Shown: piece after piece, positions 41,662-50,465 of the stretch | How positions within the stretch are numbered: position 1 is the stretch's first letter | How the letters are laid out: each line of letters begins with the position of its first letter | Translations under genes and position numbers: made by a program | The notes under the pieces: model-generated | Seen by the model: the letters and a program-made list of their open reading frames with translations, nothing else | Databases searched by the model: none | What the model was told of the DNA's origin: nothing | Source of the DNA: an uncultured Flavobacteriales bacterium | Lineage (GTDB): Bacteria; Bacteroidota; Bacteroidia; Flavobacteriales_F; PHOS-HE28 | Assembly: GCA_963814325.1 (NCBI GenBank) | Contig: CAWFCK010000017.1 | Coordinates: forward strand, 47,855 to 111,854 | Direction: 5' to 3' | Length of the DNA stretch: 64,000 bases

Positions 41662-42031
41662 GTACTGCCGGACCTGTACAGTGAGCTTCACGTTGCACAT
41701 GGGCTTTTTGGGTGGATCGATCCACCCCCTTCGTTCGGCTGGATCCCTCATCGCAACCCGCTGCTGGCAGAACACATGTGACGCTCTGTTCCCGTCGTGC
41801 GCTCCTAACGCGCATTTTTCTTTGGAAACCAGCCCTCGCCAACACCTCTGAGATGAATACGAACGTTGGCCTTGCTTCGGCGAACGACAGGATAGGCGGT
41901 CGTTCAGGGAACCAATTGTTCACAACTTTCCCTCAATATACCCGATCCCGGGTATTTTTCCATAGCTTCATCTGCCCCTGCTTCGTCATCGCTCCCGCCG
42001 CCCAAGGTGTGGAGCGTTAAACCCAACAAGC

Positions 42032-45000
42032 ATGATGCAGTCGTTATGGACAAGTCAGCGGCCAGGGTACAACGCCATGGTCGAGGTGGGGCAGAAGCGA
42101 TCTGCAAGGCCCGCCAGTGCTGCGAAATTCACATGGGGGGGGTAATTCTCCTCGCGCTGCTTTTCGTTGATCCTGGGCGCAGTGTTGGACAGGTTGCTGA
42201 AGTGATATGGGAGGGGAACCACTCAGTTCATGAACTACCCCCTGGCCGTGATTGGACACGTGTTCCAGGAGCGCTTCCATCCGACGCGAACTACTATGAT
42301 TACGTGGATCAAAGCTCTTCGGTCTTCCGCACCAACGCAGAGTCGCTCATTGACTGGTTGAACTGCGTGGTGAAGCTCTACGTGGGCGGGGTCCATGTTG
42401 GCTATGTTGCCTCGGGATATGCATTTCCCACGAATTGGATGTATCGGGTCGATGATTGCACCCAAGCACTCCCTGTGGAGTGGAACGTTGCACCTCAGAC
42501 CGGCTTTCTCTGGGAGACATATGACAAGTGGAGCGCTTTCTACCAGATGCTGACCGTTGCACGTTTCGACCTACAAGGCAATATGGTCTGGCATAGGGCC
42601 TATCACAGCGGGCAAAGCTTCGGACTCATTCAGGACAGTGAGGGTAACATAGTGGTCACCGGAGAGATACGCGACGGGAAGCCTGTTACCTCCCCCAACG
42701 GGGCCACCGCTCCATGGGCCAACGTGCCGATCTTTATGGACCCCACCACGACCACTCAAACGGATATGGCCACGGTGGTTTGTACCAGTGCTCAAAAGCT
42801 TCTGGTCGTGGACAAGATCGATCCCGATGGGAACCTGCTCTGGAGCCACACCTTTACCGCACCAAGTAATACTTTTCCTGGGCCCAACGCCCGTTCGCTC
42901 CGGACTTTTGGCAAGTCCATTGTGGAGACACATATCAACGGACAACTCGGTTATCGTGTGGTGGGCTATGCCAATGTCAACGTCTCGGATCCGTCGACCC
43001 CGCTCTATAAAGGGCGCCCTTTCGTGGTGGATATGGATGGAAATGGGCTCTTCAATTGGAAGAAAGTGTTCACCGATTTCGCCTCGACCGGCGATGGCGA
43101 TGCTTGGTACATCGCACGGCATCCTGATCCCGCAATGGAACGCTACGTGGTTTGTGGGACGGGTAGGCGTACCGGTTCGCCAAATCAAAGCGTTTGGCTC
43201 ATGTATTTCAATGAGAATGATGCACAGAACCCAGCCTGGGTCAAGGATACCTATACCGATAATGCGCTGTTCCCTGGGGTGGATATCACCAGACCCCAAC
43301 TGGCTACCCGCGTCACTTTCGCCGTGAACGGCCCCACCACCGGTATTGTTTGGCCTGTGCTCACCAATTTCTACGGGGGCACTAGCGGCAGCTTGGACCA
43401 TGAGGCTACGGGCAAGCTCTTCCGCTTCGGCCTGAACGGTGTGCCTGACCCCAATTGGACCATACCCGGCCTGGGGATGATGCGAGGGTATGAGATCCAC
43501 CTGTCAGCCATACAAACGCAGGACGGCTCCATCGCCGTGGCCAGCACCAAACGACCCGGCCCGTGGTCATTGAGCAACCCATTTACATGGCCCAATGTTG
43601 ACCCCGCGGTCAAAAACTGCCTGGTGGGCGCAGGTCGTTCCCCGAATGTTTCCGATGGCTATTGGGACTTCGACCGAGATGGGACCGGAACAACATTCGT
43701 CGCATTTGATTGGGCTGGTTACCTTAGCAGTAGCCTGAACACGGGGAATTGGCTCTCCGAAAGCTATGTGGCCAAATTGGATGCGCTTACCGGTGCACTT
43801 CAGTGGCAGTTCCAGTGGAGCGAGGATATCCCCATAGACCCGAACGAGTTCTGTGCTCTGGGTAATCTGCGCGGACGCCAATGCAGCTTCATGCTAACTG
43901 AGGATCCGGACGGTGGCCTTGTGGTGTGCGGCAACAGCGGCCATACAGGGGACGATGGCTACTTGGCCAAGATCAAGTACACGTGCGAGAACAAGGCATC
44001 CCTCTACACCGCCTTCCATGCGCTCTACCCTTACAACCAGAGCAACGTGTACACCCTTCCGCCACCAACACCACCTGGAGCACCAGCATGAACGTGCATG
44101 GCAGTGTAGTGGTACCTTCGGGAAAGACATTGACGATCAACAACAACGCCGTGATCTCCTTCGCCGACAGTCGCCGCATCGGCTACACCACCAACATCGT
44201 GGTGCAACCAGGCGGCACCCTGAACGTGATGAGCGGTGCGCTCCTCACCAACATCGGGCCCTGTGGCGATGGCATGTGGGACGGAATCAAAGCCCTGGGC
44301 AATACGAACCTCGCACAGTCGCCCACCAACCAGGCCACGGTGCAAGTGACCAGCGGCGCCACCATCGAGAACGCCTTCGTGGCCGTGCTCGCTGCGAATG
44401 CGGACATCAACGATCCCGTGAACAGCACCGCCACCCAGCGCGGCGCCCGCGTGATCTGCACCAACGCCACTTTTAAGAACAACATCTACGACGTAGTGCT
44501 CCGGCCATACACCACTGCGGACGGCAGCACCGTTACCAAGTTCCACGAGTGCGACTTCCTCACCACCAGTGCGCTCAATTACACGGACAGGACGCCGAAG
44601 ATCCACCTCTATGCGAACACCTATCCGCGCCTCAACATCAAGGGCTGCACCTTCGATGGTACACACCCGGGGCTGGTTGGTAGCAACGTGGCCGCACGGG
44701 GCAAGGGCATCGAAAGCTTCGACACCGACCTGCGCATAGCTCCCATGAATGGCCGGAACCCCACCTTCCTCAGCTTGGAAAGTGGCTGTTTCGCCAGCAA
44801 TGCCGCCAACGCCAAAACCGTACGCATCGATTGGGGTCAGTTCACCAACTGCGGCCATGGCCTGGGTATCCTGTTCGCCAACCCCGCGCATGTGACCAAT
44901 TGCGATTTCAAAGAACCCGATCTGGACATGGTGGGGCAAGGGTTGGGAGCGCCGGTGTACGGTACGTATCTGGAAAAAACACTGACCATCCTTTTTGAGC

Positions 45001-46705
45001 ACAATAGCTATTGGGCGGCCGGAGTAGAAGGCATGGAGCCGCCGTATGGAAATCCACTTGTAGGCAGCACCTTCAACGCCATTGGAGAGAACAGCAACCG
45101 CTTCTTCGACAACAAGTACTACGGCTTCAAAGCCAACAACGGTGCGCAATACAGCGCGGCTGTCACCATCCAGGGTGATAATGATGGTCCAGGCCTTGGT
45201 GACGGCCTGCAGTTCAAGTGCAACCAATTCAGCTTCTCGCCTCCGGGCGGCGATGACGATTACGACCTCGCCTTTACCGGGCCCGGAGTGAGCGTGGGGG
45301 ATAGACAGGGTGGTAATACGGATGCGCAAGCACCTGCTGGGAACACCTTCCTGATGAACTGCGCGGGTGAGGCGCACATGAAGGTGGATGATGTGCCCAG
45401 CAACACGGGCCTGTACTTCCAGTATTGGCACCATACATGGACCTCCACGGCACAGGTAGTACCAACCTGCTTAACCAACCCACCGTTGGTTCCATATTCC
45501 ACCGCCGTGCCACCATTTTCCCCCACGCCCGGTACCATCAATATGGATGCGAACCTACAATTCAATAGGGCGATAGCGTGCGGCGGTGGAGCCATGATGT
45601 TGATGGCCAGCGGTGGCCAGAACGCGGCGAACGCGGTTTCCAATGCCGCCAGCGAGCGCACCACTTTGAAGGCCGTGTACGACAATTGGACGGACGGTGG
45701 CAATACCGAGGGCTTGGCGGACTACGTACGCAACCTAGCGAACACCAGCTACCAGGTGCGTAACCAGTTGATGCTGGTGGCACCCAAGGTGAGCAGTGAC
45801 GTGTGGAAACTGGTCTTCTACCGTGAAGTGCCGATGAATTCCTGGCATTTGGCGCAGGCCCTCATCGCCAACAGCCCCTTGGAACCGGAGGTGTACCGCA
45901 TGATGGAGGAAAGTGAGCTTACCGCCTACTACAAGCAACTGGTAGCGAACGAGCAAGGCGGCATGAACATGCAGACCATCATGGAAAGCGAATTGGCCTA
46001 TTGGGAGAGCGAGCAGAGCCAAGCACTTTTCGTGTACTCGGCACTGGCGTTGGAAGAAGATGCGACCGTGACTATCGCCGATGCCATTAGCCCTGCACCA
46101 ACAATATCACGGTGGCAGGTAGTAACGAGGCGATACATCTGTTGCGCATGGCCGCAGGAGATCACGCTACGGCGCGCGCAGCGATGAACGATGTGCTCGC
46201 GGGCGATCACAGTGGCTGGTGGGATGTGCAGAACATCAACCTCACCCTGCAGGAAACCGGCGCTGAAGCGCTCAGTCCTTCTCAGATCGGTACGCTCCAA
46301 ACGCTTGCAGCAACCGACGGCGACGGCAGCGCACCAGCCCGTGCATGGTTGGGAGCCATCAACGGCGAACGACCTGTTGTGGAGGTGATCCTGCCGGGTA
46401 CGGGCACCCGCATGTTCATGGGCGGGCGTGCAGGAATGGAGCTTATAGTTCCAGAGCTGCTCGGCATCTACCCGAACCCCACAAAGGGCGACGCATACAT
46501 CACCTACCAATTGCCGGAAGGCGCTGAGCAGGGCACCCTGGAAGTACATGACCCCACAGGGCGCTTGTTGCTAGCAAAGAACCTGCAAGTCGGTGGCGGT
46601 ATCGTGGAGTTGCCACGCGCACAACTAGGTGCTGGCGCTTACGTGGTGGGCTTGAAGGCGGATGGCCTGCGTGTGGCTACCGGTAAGTTCATTGTACAAC
46701 GCTGA
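42032..46705 (+). CDS. Large T9SS cargo protein 'A': N-terminal propeller-like region, parallel beta-helix region, helical region and CTD (frameshifts ~42140, ~44060, ~46110)
   Basis: Signal h-region VILLALLFVDPGRSVGQ; blade-like repeats (QDSEGNIVVTG, EDPDGGLVVCG); beta-helix-like VVVPSGKTLTI, WDGI, NIKGCTF, NCDF; CTD IYPNP...VHDPTGR...GAYVV...KFIVQR. Confidence 0.75.
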
Positions 46706-46708
46706 GCT

Positions 46709-48288
46709 ATGAAGAGCAGGCTTTTCGCATGCTTGCTTGTGATCCTGCTGCACGGGGGCTTCTGCTCCCGTGCAGCCGCACAAGGTGGCTTCCAAGTACG
46801 GCACGATGCATTTGGTCAGGGTCATTCCCGCTCTTGTTTCGGGTTCGAACAAAGCAGCGATGGATCGTTCGTGCTGTTCGGGAATGGCATGTACTACAAT
46901 TGGGATGACAGCCTATTGTACAGTTCAGTGGTTTCTGCGGAGCGCTTTTCGGCAAACGGCTCATTCCTGAATGAGGACACTGTGCTTGTGCCATTGATCG
47001 CTACGTATGTGGGGTGGTCCAATTGCTCAACAAAGTTGCCCGACGGCCGCATTGTGGTATCGGGTGGGTTCTCGGAGGATCCAGATACGAACCGGATCGC
47101 GATCTATCTGGTTCAGCCCGGATGGTACAGCGCTGGATCATGTTACTATCCTACCCAATTCGCGCTCATGGATCGCCTACCAGCACAAGAACACTCCTGA
47201 TGGCGGTTTCATTCTCACGGGTGTCACGTCCGCCACCGGCCTGCAAGACATCTTCCTTTTGAAGACCGACAGCCTGGGCAATGTGCAGTGGTGGCAGACC
47301 TATGGGCACCCTACCAGGTTGGATTATGCGACCTCGGTCGATCTTTTGCCCGATGGTGGTTACTGCATCGGTGGCATCTATCAACAAATACCCTGGTGGT
47401 GGTGGTCAATATGTGCAGTGGGTGCTACATACTGATAGCCTGGGAGGATTGATATGGGAGTACCTTGGTGGAGCGCCGTCGTACGATGCTGCGAATGCCG
47501 CAGTGCTCTCCACCGCTGATGGCAATATGGTATATGCTGCGGCCAAGTTCGTTGGCGGACCGGATCAAGGCCAGAAGCCTGAAATGGTGAAGATGGATGT
47601 GGATGGCAATGTACTTTGGGAGAAGACCTACGGTGATTCCGTCTTTGCAACGGGCTTTTTTTCGGTAGCTGAAGTGCCTGTCAATGGCGATTCTGATCGC
47701 CTGCGGGCAGAAGTGGTTCCAAACCGATGGCGGCTTCGCTTACCGCAAGGGCATTTTGGTGCGGGCGAACAGCGAGGGCGATAGCCTATGGATGCGGGAG
47801 TATGTCTACTACGACAGTTTGATGAATGATGGTCAAGGTCTATTTCGCGATGTGCAACCTACAGCAGATGGTGGCTTTGTAGCCGTTGGTCAGACGGCAG
47901 GTAGCATCAGCGGCAACAACCCACCGGGCCTCAGCCAGGATGTGTGGGTGGTGAAAGTGGATACAGCCTGGGCTGCATCATTCCCGGCTGCGATGATTTC
48001 AGCACGGTGATCACCATGCAGGCCACAAACCTGAGAGATGCTCTTGCGGTGTATCCAAACCCTGCGAGGGAAAGCACTACGGTGAATGTCGCGCTATCTG
48101 CGGGTTCGTCTTTGGTGGCCGACCTGCGCTTGCGGTTGGTGAGCGCGCAAGGGCAGGAAGTGCTGGTGCAACGCGCCGCGCTCGGCGAGAACCAATTGTC
48201 GCTTCATGGACTGGCTGGGGGCATCCACTACCTGCACCTTACGAGTGGTACCACTTGGTTGAGCGGGACCAAACTCCTTGTGGAATGA
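46709..48288 (+). CDS. T9SS cargo protein 'B1' (beta-propeller-like + CTD), frameshifted
   Basis: Signal peptide ending RAAAQ; repeats TPDGGFILTG/LLKTDSLGNVQW, PTADGGFVAVG; GCIIPGC linker; CTD VYPNPA...GIHYLHL...KLLVE. Confidence 0.8.
48071..48225 (+). repeat. 155-bp direct repeat, copy 1 (B1 CTD)
   Basis: Matches 50248-50402 with 4 mismatches in a manual alignment. Confidence 0.9.
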
Positions 48289-48926
48289 TGTTCACGAACG
48301 GACTATTGAGCGCAGGGTCGCGAGGCGCAGACCCTGCGCGAGGGAAAGAACTGGTTCGCCTGCACATCGCGAACGCTGACCTTCAGAGTGCTCGCGCCTT
48401 GGTGAACCAACAGGTGGTTGCAACGCCGTGCACATGGTGGTACGTGCAGGACCTTTGGCTGTCGCACTTGGAGGATGGCCAAGACCCGGATGCCATGGAC
48501 AATGCGTTGCGCCTGCAACTCGAAACCCTCGCCGCTACGGATGACATTGGCGCAGGTGTGGCGAGAGCTGGTTGGCTGCGGCGGGTTTACCCTACCAGGC
48601 AGATGTGATCCTGCCTTCGCTCAACCGCGCCGCACAAGCCTACCCAGATCGCCACCAGGGTATCTCACCGACTTGCTGCGCTGAGTGTACACCCGAACCC
48701 TTCGCAGGGAGAGGCCTATATCACGTACAACTTGCCGGAGGGAATGACCGAGGCGAGCATTGAGGTGATCGATGCGACCGGTCGCATGGTCTGGAACGAA
48801 ACCACAGGGCGCTCAAGTGGAATTGTGGAGTTGCCACGGCGTGTTTTGCTGCCAGGGCTTTACCACATCGCTTTGCTTTCTGAAGGTGTGCGGATCGAGA
48901 GCATCAAATTCACCACGATCCGCTGA
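48285..48926 (+). CDS. Orphan C-terminal fragment 'A-prime' (helical region + T9SS CTD, no signal peptide), frameshifted
   Basis: LETLAATDDIGAGVARA, DVILP, HPNP-GEAYITYNLPEG and GIVELPR align with the A C-terminus (LQTLAATDGDGSAPARA, EVILP, YPNP-GDAYITYQLPEG, GIVELPR). Confidence 0.7.
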
Positions 48927-48929
48927 ACC

Positions 48930-50465
48930 ATGCTACGGCAAGCCATTGCGCTCGGCCTTGTTTGTGTGTTGCACGGGAGTATGTGCTCCCGTGCAACCGC
49001 ACAGGGCTTTAACAAGAGGTATGACGTCATGTCACCGGGTTGGTGGCAAGTGGCATTCGCAATAGAGCAAGGAGCTAGTGGCAGCTATTACATTATCGGA
49101 GGAGCTCCGCGGGTTGACTCCTTGTACGCTAGTTCGACTGTTCAGATCATCACGCTGAATCAGCTGGGCGATACCATCTCGGTTTCACGCAATGCTGTGT
49201 TGAATGATGCGGCTGCGTATCCGGGTGCCTACAACTCGGCAGTCACACTCGGTGATGGGCGCATTGTGGTTTGCGGTAGTACATATAGCCCCGACCTGAT
49301 CTCGCGCATAGCCTTCTATTGGTTCGATCCAAATGGTATTGCACAGAACTACGTGGAACTTGACCTTCCCTCCAATTGGGTGGGTAGGCATTTGAAGGCT
49401 ACCCCGGACGGCGGCTTCATCATTGTGGGCGATACGTATGATGGCGGGCCGGAGGATGCTTTCATCATGAAGACGGATAGTGCGGGTACTCCGGAGTGGT
49501 GGCAAGTACATGGGTTGCCAGGGCGTCGGGATTTTTTCTTCTCCGTAGATCTTGCGCCACAAGGGGGTTACTACATCGGTGGGAATGTAAGCGTGAACTC
49601 AGGGCAGTACGATCCGTGGGTGCTCATGTGCGACAGCACAGGTGCGGTGGTGTGGGAATTCACGCACGGCACACCCTACGAGGATTTCTCCCGTGCCCAG
49701 GTTACCGGCCTTGCCGATGGTGCCGCGATCGTGGGTTCCGGATTGCCAAGCGGAACGTTTGGGAACCAATGGGCACAGTTGTTCAAGGTAGATAGCAATG
49801 GCACTATTCTCTGGGACAAGCCTATGATGTGGATTCGTACAGCACAACGCTGACCCAGGTGAAGGAGATCACATCGAGTGGTGACCTGATAGCTTGTGGA
49901 CTGAGCTTCGCGTCCAATGTGACAGACGGCATACTCTTGCGCACTAACCACGATGGTGATAGTATCTGGATGCGGCACTATTTCTATGTCGACAGTTTGA
50001 TGGACGATGGCACTGGGCAGCTTAATGATGTGGAACCGACAGATGATGGTGGATTCATTGCGGTGGGTACGGCTTTGGGCAGTGCGAGCGGCAATAATCC
50101 ACCAGGGCCTTACGCAGGACATCTGGGTAGTGAAGGTGGATAGTCTGGGTTGCATCATCCCCGGCTGCGATGACTTCAGCACAGTGATCACGGTACAGGC
50201 CACGAACTTGGGGAGCGCATTATCGGTGTACCCGAACCCGGCACGCCAAAGCACTACGGTGAAGGTCACGCTATCTGCGGGTTCGTCTTTGGTGGCCGAC
50301 CTGCGCTTGCGGTTGGTGAGCGCGCAAGGGCAGGAAGTGCTGGTGCAACGCGCCGCGATCGGCGAGAACCAATTGTCGCTTCATGAACTGGCTGGGGGCA
50401 TCTACTACCTTCACCTCACCAGTGGCAGCACTTGGATGAGCGGTGTTAAATTGGTGGTGGAGTGA
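48930..50465 (+). CDS. T9SS cargo protein 'B2', paralog of B1, frameshifted
   Basis: Signal peptide ending RATAQ; TPDGGFIIVG/IMKTDSAG repeats; GNNPPG..QDIWVVKVDSLGCIIPGC; CTD ending KLVVE. Confidence 0.8.
50248..50402 (+). repeat. 155-bp direct repeat, copy 2 (B2 CTD)
   Basis: Matches 48071-48225. Confidence 0.9.

Follow-up and report, generated by a model that had tools for sequence, protein, structure and literature searches.

Paired T9SS cargo genes with orphan cassettes between tamB and ribBA: a candidate scaffold and its variable propeller partner

Background

The window analyzed here is a stretch of 64,000 nucleotides from the genome of an uncultured Flavobacteriales bacterium (assembly GCA_963814325.1, contig CAWFCK010000017.1), and the locus of interest in it is a run of four genes, A - B1 - A' - B2, all on the + strand, that lies between two core genes which we take to be tamB and ribBA, following an earlier note made from the sequence alone. 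Each of the four ends in a C-terminal domain (CTD) of the type IX secretion system (T9SS). The question raised by this locus is why a gene and its partner should be followed by a shortened relative of the first gene and a second partner. The earlier note likened the arrangement to CDI, Rhs and MafB loci and proposed that the C-terminal helical region of A and the protein B could be a cognate, co-secreted pair, with A'-B2 as an alternative module.

Orphan arrays of the contact-dependent inhibition (CDI; cdiA-CT/cdiI) and Rhs systems have a full gene and its partner and, behind these, partner-bearing 3' fragments that differ in length; they are made by paired homologous and illegitimate recombination, their downstream partners may be expressed (PMC3150448, PMC8125069), and C-terminal displacement has been described for rhs (PMC8125069). 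The answer that we prefer, with a probability of roughly 0.55, is that A is a scaffold, that B is its variable propeller partner and that the arrays arise by C-terminal displacement; the displacement architecture taken alone we consider highly probable. In what follows G000 is the genome of the window and C-numbers are its contigs, other G-numbers are further genomes, and L-numbers are loci.

Results

Organization and assembly of the locus

Gene A (42032..46705, + strand) codes for a putative signal peptide, a propeller-like head of about 620 amino acids, a right-handed beta-helix, a conserved alpha-helical domain and a T9SS type A CTD. It is followed on the same strand by B1 (46709..48288), with a signal peptide, a seven-bladed SBBP/DUF5122-like beta-propeller and a CTD; by A' (48285..48926), a signal-less remnant of another A allele that holds the last helices and the CTD; and by B2 (48930..50465), another allele of B, which likewise has a signal peptide and a CTD and whose stop abuts the ribBA stop. 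A match to Por_Secre_tail ends all four units, at 27.1-34.1 bits for A, B1 and B2 and at 25.9 bits for A', just under the cut-off of 27 bits. The four same-strand T9SS-CTD genes were thus confirmed, and the unit of A C-terminus plus B, first put at a spacing of ~2.2 kb, was measured to recur at 2177-2221 nt. The description of all four as cargoes holds for the CTD but not for A', which lacks a signal peptide as judged by eye and is therefore not a cargo. In the CTD of A, B1 and B2 and of intact relatives, and in a putative signal peptide (by eye) on A, B1 and B2, these proteins resemble T9SS type A cargo (PF18962/TIGR04183); unlike ordinary cargo of this kind, they form a near-obligate two-cargo pair with arrays of alleles.

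The block has a GC content of 0.568 against 0.611 and 0.619 in the flanks, in agreement with the A/T-richness first seen by eye, and falls in the lowest 2% of 846 genome windows. In seven relatives (G093, G041, G107, G142, G003, G005 and G086) the site is empty and tamB stands directly beside ribBA, the relatives being Flavobacteriales metagenome-assembled genomes; also absent there is the inserted region upstream of A, after the tamB stop (41662..42031, no strand given). The Bacteroidota promoter consensus is TANNTTTG, and this motif was not found in the A-B1-A'-B2 block; no RNA data set was listed as carrying the region.

Frameshifts occur in every gene of the locus, the flanking core genes included, and those in A lie near 42134, 44056 and 46090. 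In contigs assembled from short reads of four freshwater runs, which match the pieces in question at 97 to over 99% identity, compensating indels occur at 42134, 44056, 47391, 47691, 47961, 49820 and 50105, as well as in tamB and ribBA, so that these frame breaks are assembly errors; the break near 46090 is not among the rows listed for these contigs. Two of the contigs listed span A' to B2, and none of them spans the joint from B1 to A'. Across positions 35000-56000 of the window the core genes are frameshifted throughout, and apparent pseudogenes of this genome are better taken as assembly errors until checked. Misassembly, which the earlier note had named as grounds for refutation, was rejected for the array itself, since B1 and B2 are just 34-50% identical over the first 400 columns, too divergent for a collapsed duplicate, and the indels are explained by the contigs from other runs.

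At their 3' ends B1 and B2 are 79-86% identical, and a 3' block of B1 (47965..48264, + strand) is 88% identical over 300 nt to positions 50142-50441 in B2. The two halves of the locus did not, then, diverge evenly as had been thought, and the block is likely to be a crossover or conversion tract. Close strains show such exchange in progress, with an A allele that diverges after 46087, a different head after 42183 and a B2-B1 mosaic, and these swapped A ends and mosaic B genes support the earlier note.

Conservation of the A-B pair

An A-like match is present in 68 of the 121 genomes of the genus, and the A helical domain in 36 of 301 sampled Bacteroidia genomes. B stands directly after A in 74 of the 77 distinct cases with room downstream (two further cases lie at contig ends), and it is the next gene in 15 of 16 further, more distant loci of the genus. 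Two of the three exceptions among the 77 have another propeller-like CTD gene in the B slot; at L076 and L078 the slot holds, by eye, a delta-60-like type of propeller with a CTD. Among 20 loci of other families a profile places B after A in 13, probably to be joined by L206, and unrelated propellers occupy the slot at L204 (Kelch) and at L199 (Rax2-type), the latter behind a helical domain without a beta-helix match. The A protein of L202 carries, fused in ahead of the CTD, a homologous propeller and is not followed by B, and L194 ends at this point. The pair proposed at the outset is thus conserved, in other families as well. Seen from the side of B, 95 of 129 distinct genes stand behind an A-type CTD, be it that of a full gene or of a stub, 6 stand behind another B and 28 behind neither. 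A distant A-like gene, a B-like gene and a third propeller-CTD gene stand in this order at G000:C2:121900-129300.

Architecture of the two proteins

Protein A, a T9SS cargo, is built of a head that can be swapped, a beta-helix, a helical domain that is conserved, and a CTD. A model of residues of the intact relative from L025 (68-80% identical to its nearest relatives and 75% identical to the window A in the modelled region) shows the beta-helix, a helical part about 260 residues long and a CTD with an Ig-like fold, with a pLDDT of 84.7. A structure search that covered the beta-helix alone gave a best match to a tailspike (Z 19.5) and further tailspikes and adhesins at Z 15-19, and their identity of about 10% makes these matches evidence of fold only. 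With the A model Foldseek found nothing credible, neither the Pfam nor the NCBIfam copy searched has a family for the helical domain, the ESM Atlas returned unnamed clusters or nothing, and PF28492 is a precomputed annotation on three A proteins.

The C-terminal region of A can be aligned over 45 copies and includes its most conserved window, with the CTD at the end. The heads differ widely: 47 distinct ones fall into clusters of 28, 5, 4, 4, 4, 1 and 1, at least six unrelated heads sit on one A base with the Pfam names beta-helix, BNR/VPS10, M43 and S8, and loci of the other families contribute SprB repeats, FG-GAP and an ice-binding domain as well. With a variable N-terminus and a constant C-terminus, the polarity of A is opposite to that of polymorphic toxins. 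Giant A-family proteins of 4135 and 3047 aa are encoded at L193:4725-17129 and L199:2055-11195, with SprB repeats and an ice-binding domain or with FG-GAP, S8 and PKD domains.

The B partners, 69 of which were aligned, form a single family with signal peptide and CTD. The model of a relative, the B protein of L041, is a seven-bladed propeller (pLDDT 93.7), and both its nearest solved fold and a sequence homolog are found in the propeller of CylK (Z 42.8; sequence E about 1e-26; about 20% identity). The match spans CylK 250-662 only; unlike CylK, B has no N-terminal domain of that kind and gives no sign of CylK's enzyme function. One loop face of B is less conserved (0.39 vs 0.60). Copies of B within one array, which number up to six at L044, are patchworks that range from 30 to 100% identity per 57-residue window.

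Over 33 full pairs the distances among A proteins and among B proteins correlate with r 0.65, alike for the beta-helix and the C-terminal part of A, and the partial r with B is 0.29 for the helical region vs 0.26 for the beta-helix. The A CTD reaches r 0.08-0.16 with B windows; the CTDs of both proteins are decoupled, those of B from the B bodies as well. The covariation is equal for the beta-helix and explicable by shared descent. The proposal that the helical region is a swapped cognate payload was not supported, for conservation in A peaks in a window of this region, and its association with B is no closer than that of the beta-helix. A complex prediction for the L041 B propeller and the A helical domain, run with alignments, scored 0.00 in two runs, which is no evidence either way.

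Orphan remnants of A

Arrays of a full A-B pair and an orphan A'-B unit were found in the window and at L028, L041, L044, L046, L064, L073, L075, L179, L190, L192 and L193; such orphan units are common and recur across Bacteroidia. The starts of the stubs are scattered between points far inside the beta-helix and the final 30 codons of the CTD, and the stubs are about 30 to 800 codons long; they also precede solo B genes far from any full A, and by eye no stub has a signal peptide. That A remnants may be as short as about 30 codons of CTD, or be missing altogether, and that unrelated core-gene pieces are duplicated via like joints, speaks against the A C-terminus as payload. The A' of the window is nearest to the remnant at L046 (57% and 55%) and 35-45% identical to the window's own A; B2 is 53% identical to the B gene after the L046 remnant, and the best relatives of A' and B2 adjoin each other there.

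The ATG of A' overlaps the B1 stop, and the frame is open through the hairpin described below into A-like sequence. An ATG that overlaps the upstream stop in frame with the stub was found at 8 of 10 loci, or 9 of 11 with the window (p 0.0014 against an expectation of 1/3), and the stub is in frame in 3 of 4 further independent joints. From this frame bias we infer selection for translation into the next B, which would then be expressed. A' would be mostly a by-product that keeps translation coupled, with B as the payload that is retained.

As in CDI, Rhs and MafB loci, the window and the array loci show a full gene and partner and then orphan pairs of 3' fragment and partner, and this much of the orphan-cassette likeness stands. 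What does not carry over is the C-terminal toxin with its cognate, unrelated immunity partner: A has no polymorphic C-terminal toxin or junction motif, B is a 500-aa secreted propeller of one family rather than a small unrelated immunity protein as in CDI and Rhs, and it is the N-terminal head and B that vary. The stubs, too, usually have an in-frame start, which cdiA-CT orphans generally do not.

Hairpins and joints

The B1-A' joint carries a repetitive extragenic palindrome (REP) that had been overlooked. This REP3 hairpin (GCGCAGGGTC...GACCCTGCGC) with its purine tail occupies 48310..48346 on the + strand and begins 21 bases past the B1 stop; A homology begins about 7 nt behind the hairpin, at ~48346. 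In a contig from another run the match stops at 48348 and resumes at 46388 in A. REP3 has 28 strict sites in G000 vs 1 in 1.5 Mb of shuffled sequence; because the loose pattern for REP1, a second family, also matched shuffled sequence, a stricter one was used for REP counts at the ends of open reading frames (ORFs). Copies of REP3 cluster around REP-associated tyrosine transposase (RAYT) genes at C2 and C26, and copies of REP1 around the RAYT gene of C28.

In their sequence motifs the RAYTs at C2 and C26 resemble subclass 2.6, a subclass of Bacteroidetes with atypical structures (PMC6006769), and a 5' GT[AG]G guide is not evident by eye at the hairpin foot. TnpA-REP cleaves single-stranded DNA on the 5' or the 3' side of REPs and carries out strand transfer in vitro (PMC8266576). 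The genome-wide, atypical hairpins that flank HUH-Y1 genes are shared with described REP/RAYT systems (PMC6006769, PMC8266576); unlike in those, the REP 3' ends here mark joints at which whole genes are captured or duplicated.

REP1 or REP3 ends <=60 nt from the stub start in 12 of 44 joint rows (which include duplicates and a few non-joints), each time at a different point of A. Of 118 B stops, 14 have a REP in the next 150 nt, vs 7 of 1236 other ORF ends, and none of 40 full-length A starts is preceded by one. Joints mapped to the nucleotide lie about 8-12 nt behind the hairpin foot, that of C6 lies at +3, and compound REP1 joints lie behind a second hairpin. All 8 REP1 copies have the same orientation, and their sense strand carries an A-C mismatch, that is, the weaker RNA hairpin.

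The joints often copy sequence from upstream in the same locus, where by our reading of the genes the sources are the 3' end of a NifU-like gene at L063 (97%), a glycosyltransferase-like gene (82%), a B CTD at L154 (90%), the RAYT gene of C26 (99%, AA overlap, joined on the antisense strand of the RAYT gene) and the RAYT gene of C6 (93%, foot +3, AA overlap). An AA is present at the joint in the window, too. Because core-gene pieces are duplicated via the same joint type, the stub is not special to A.

Related structures were seen elsewhere. The RAYT loci at G000:C26:59700-60650 and C6:252900-255900 have partial self-duplications joined at the REP3 3' end, with two secreted-protein genes between the RAYT and its fragment in C6. 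A cysteine desulfurase-like gene occurs twice (90%) at G000:C21:3700-4520 and C20:81795-82400, one copy starting 7 nt behind REP1, and at G000:C12:14600-14760 a truncated Mrr-like C-terminus, 87% identical to C25:9059, stands behind REP1. At G000:C7:68400-75450 the 3' 355 nt of a helicase gene are duplicated (93%) 3.4 kb downstream; between the copies lie a B CTD remnant, REP1 and an FG-GAP T9SS gene, and a solo B stands behind the second. A third hairpin family, with zero copies in G000 by a strict pattern, lies directly ahead of a 29-codon CTD stub and B at L051, L143, L145 and L149. A fourth, short hairpin-bearing element is found beside B at L025, L028, L029, L056, L178 and G000:C7, upstream of B in C7 and downstream of it elsewhere.

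Discussion

Under the preferred reading A and B would be a co-transcribed T9SS cargo pair that forms a modular surface assembly. A would be the scaffold, with an interchangeable N-terminal head on a constant base of beta-helix and helices, and B the variable propeller partner that binds to it, probably as a ligand-binding or targeting subunit. An incoming piece of A 3' end plus B, with or without a REP, would have one end placed by homologous recombination, whether within A, within the B 3'/CTD block or within a gene upstream, and its other end attached by an illegitimate joint, and the previous A 3' end would be left as a signal-less stub ahead of the previous B. At the locus in the window, entry via the 88% identical B 3' block would yield the observed order. 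Stubs in frame with their ATG on the upstream stop would be favoured, probably by carrying translation into the next B. In the genus, part of the illegitimate joints are fixed just 3' of REP hairpins, for which RAYT nicking and strand transfer would be the simplest route. By analogy only with the Streptomyces umbrella particles and their UmbA (PMC13274773), diversified propeller partners, orphans included, could broaden the targets of one scaffold; unlike there, the secretion system is a different one and no toxin domain was seen in A, and no homology is implied.

A number of observations weigh against this reading. The pairing fails at L122, at L205, which shows no B, and at L208, where B lies upstream. 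B was present without a match to the A helical domain in 6 of 10 chosen B-bearing genomes (G009, G084, G013, G120, G090 and G034, which are 91-100% complete), and B therefore does not need A. The r of 0.65 can be explained by shared descent plus CTD exchange and does not demonstrate a cognate interface. In line with the earlier note, neither a toxin nor a catalytic function, nor a ligand function, was identified for the A base or B. As for the hairpins, just 12 of the 44 joint rows and 1 of 7 out-of-sample joints carry REP1 or REP3, and the significance of the REP enrichment is overstated because B-REP units are common to relatives. The joints inspected in other families have no strong hairpin, so that REPs are not required, no REP lies at the joint of the duplicated C7 helicase piece, and the short side of the X3 joint measures 35 nt, with undefined sequence between.

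Two alternatives would change the roles of the proteins. We consider it unlikely that the locus is an extracellular effector-immunity system, in which A would attack competitors, B would neutralise the matching A at the cell surface, and extra or solo B genes would be acquired immunity alleles. Such a system would suit the asymmetric dependence (A nearly always with B, B alone or in arrays of up to six), the covariation of the A and B bodies though the CTD between them is decoupled, the proteases among the A heads and an orphan architecture like that in PMC3150448 and PMC8125069, but a single B family stands behind unrelated heads, unrelated propellers fill the slot and one fusion is known; a toxin domain of the variable, C-terminal kind is absent, no toxin family was matched, and the blade-wise shuffling in arrays would break up a cognate interface. 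The pairing and the propeller slot kept across many families and heads, the fusion, and a frame bias that implies selection on arrays also make it improbable that A and B are independent, co-transcribed adhesins or enzymes without contact, with B needing the A 3' end for translation initiation and the arrays being debris of duplication or transfer, even though each protein has its own signal peptide and CTD, solo B genes are common (for 28 of 129 the gene immediately upstream does not encode a CTD), stub length is arbitrary and core-gene pieces are duplicated likewise.

For the joints themselves, the Ssn nuclease (PMC11893778) is a possible alternative cutter, though the two hairpin families flank RAYT genes here. 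An RNA route, in which a hairpin would block 3' exonucleases and a reverse-transcribed, 5'-truncated A-B message would re-integrate, seems very improbable, for although exonucleases stall at stem-loops and the joints have a 3' end fixed just past the hairpin and a variable 5' end, at C26 the strand of the RAYT gene that is joined to the REP is the antisense one, and the orientation of REP1 puts the weaker RNA hairpin on the sense strand, which together favour a DNA route, and the hairpins belong to RAYT-flanking families (no search for a reverse transcriptase was made).

Conclusions

The scaffold-and-partner reading can be carried one step further, to a tentative proposal that we hold to be possible rather than probable: RAYT and REP may act as a gene-capture engine that cuts 3' of the REP on single-stranded DNA, joins this end to a variable upstream point and integrates the product by homology. 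Such an engine might, with as much doubt attached, repeatedly load propeller alleles into a two-subunit T9SS surface machine with swappable heads and combinatorial partners. REPs were reportedly seen by Shyamala in 1990 at duplication join points in Salmonella. Our literature search, made mostly in openly accessible papers, found no description of the A-B pair or of REP-anchored capture. According to the Conclusion of bioRxiv 2021.07.10.451892, no study ties REPIN function to the RAYT beyond cleavage, and the benefit of REPIN-RAYT systems to their hosts is unclear. The proposal bears on this question in a precise form, for it specifies the enzyme and the hairpin and predicts where the cut would fall; if it is true, gene capture would be a concrete host benefit for domesticated RAYTs. 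The locus itself extends orphan-cassette diversification, known from toxin loci, to a widespread T9SS surface pair without a recognisable toxin.

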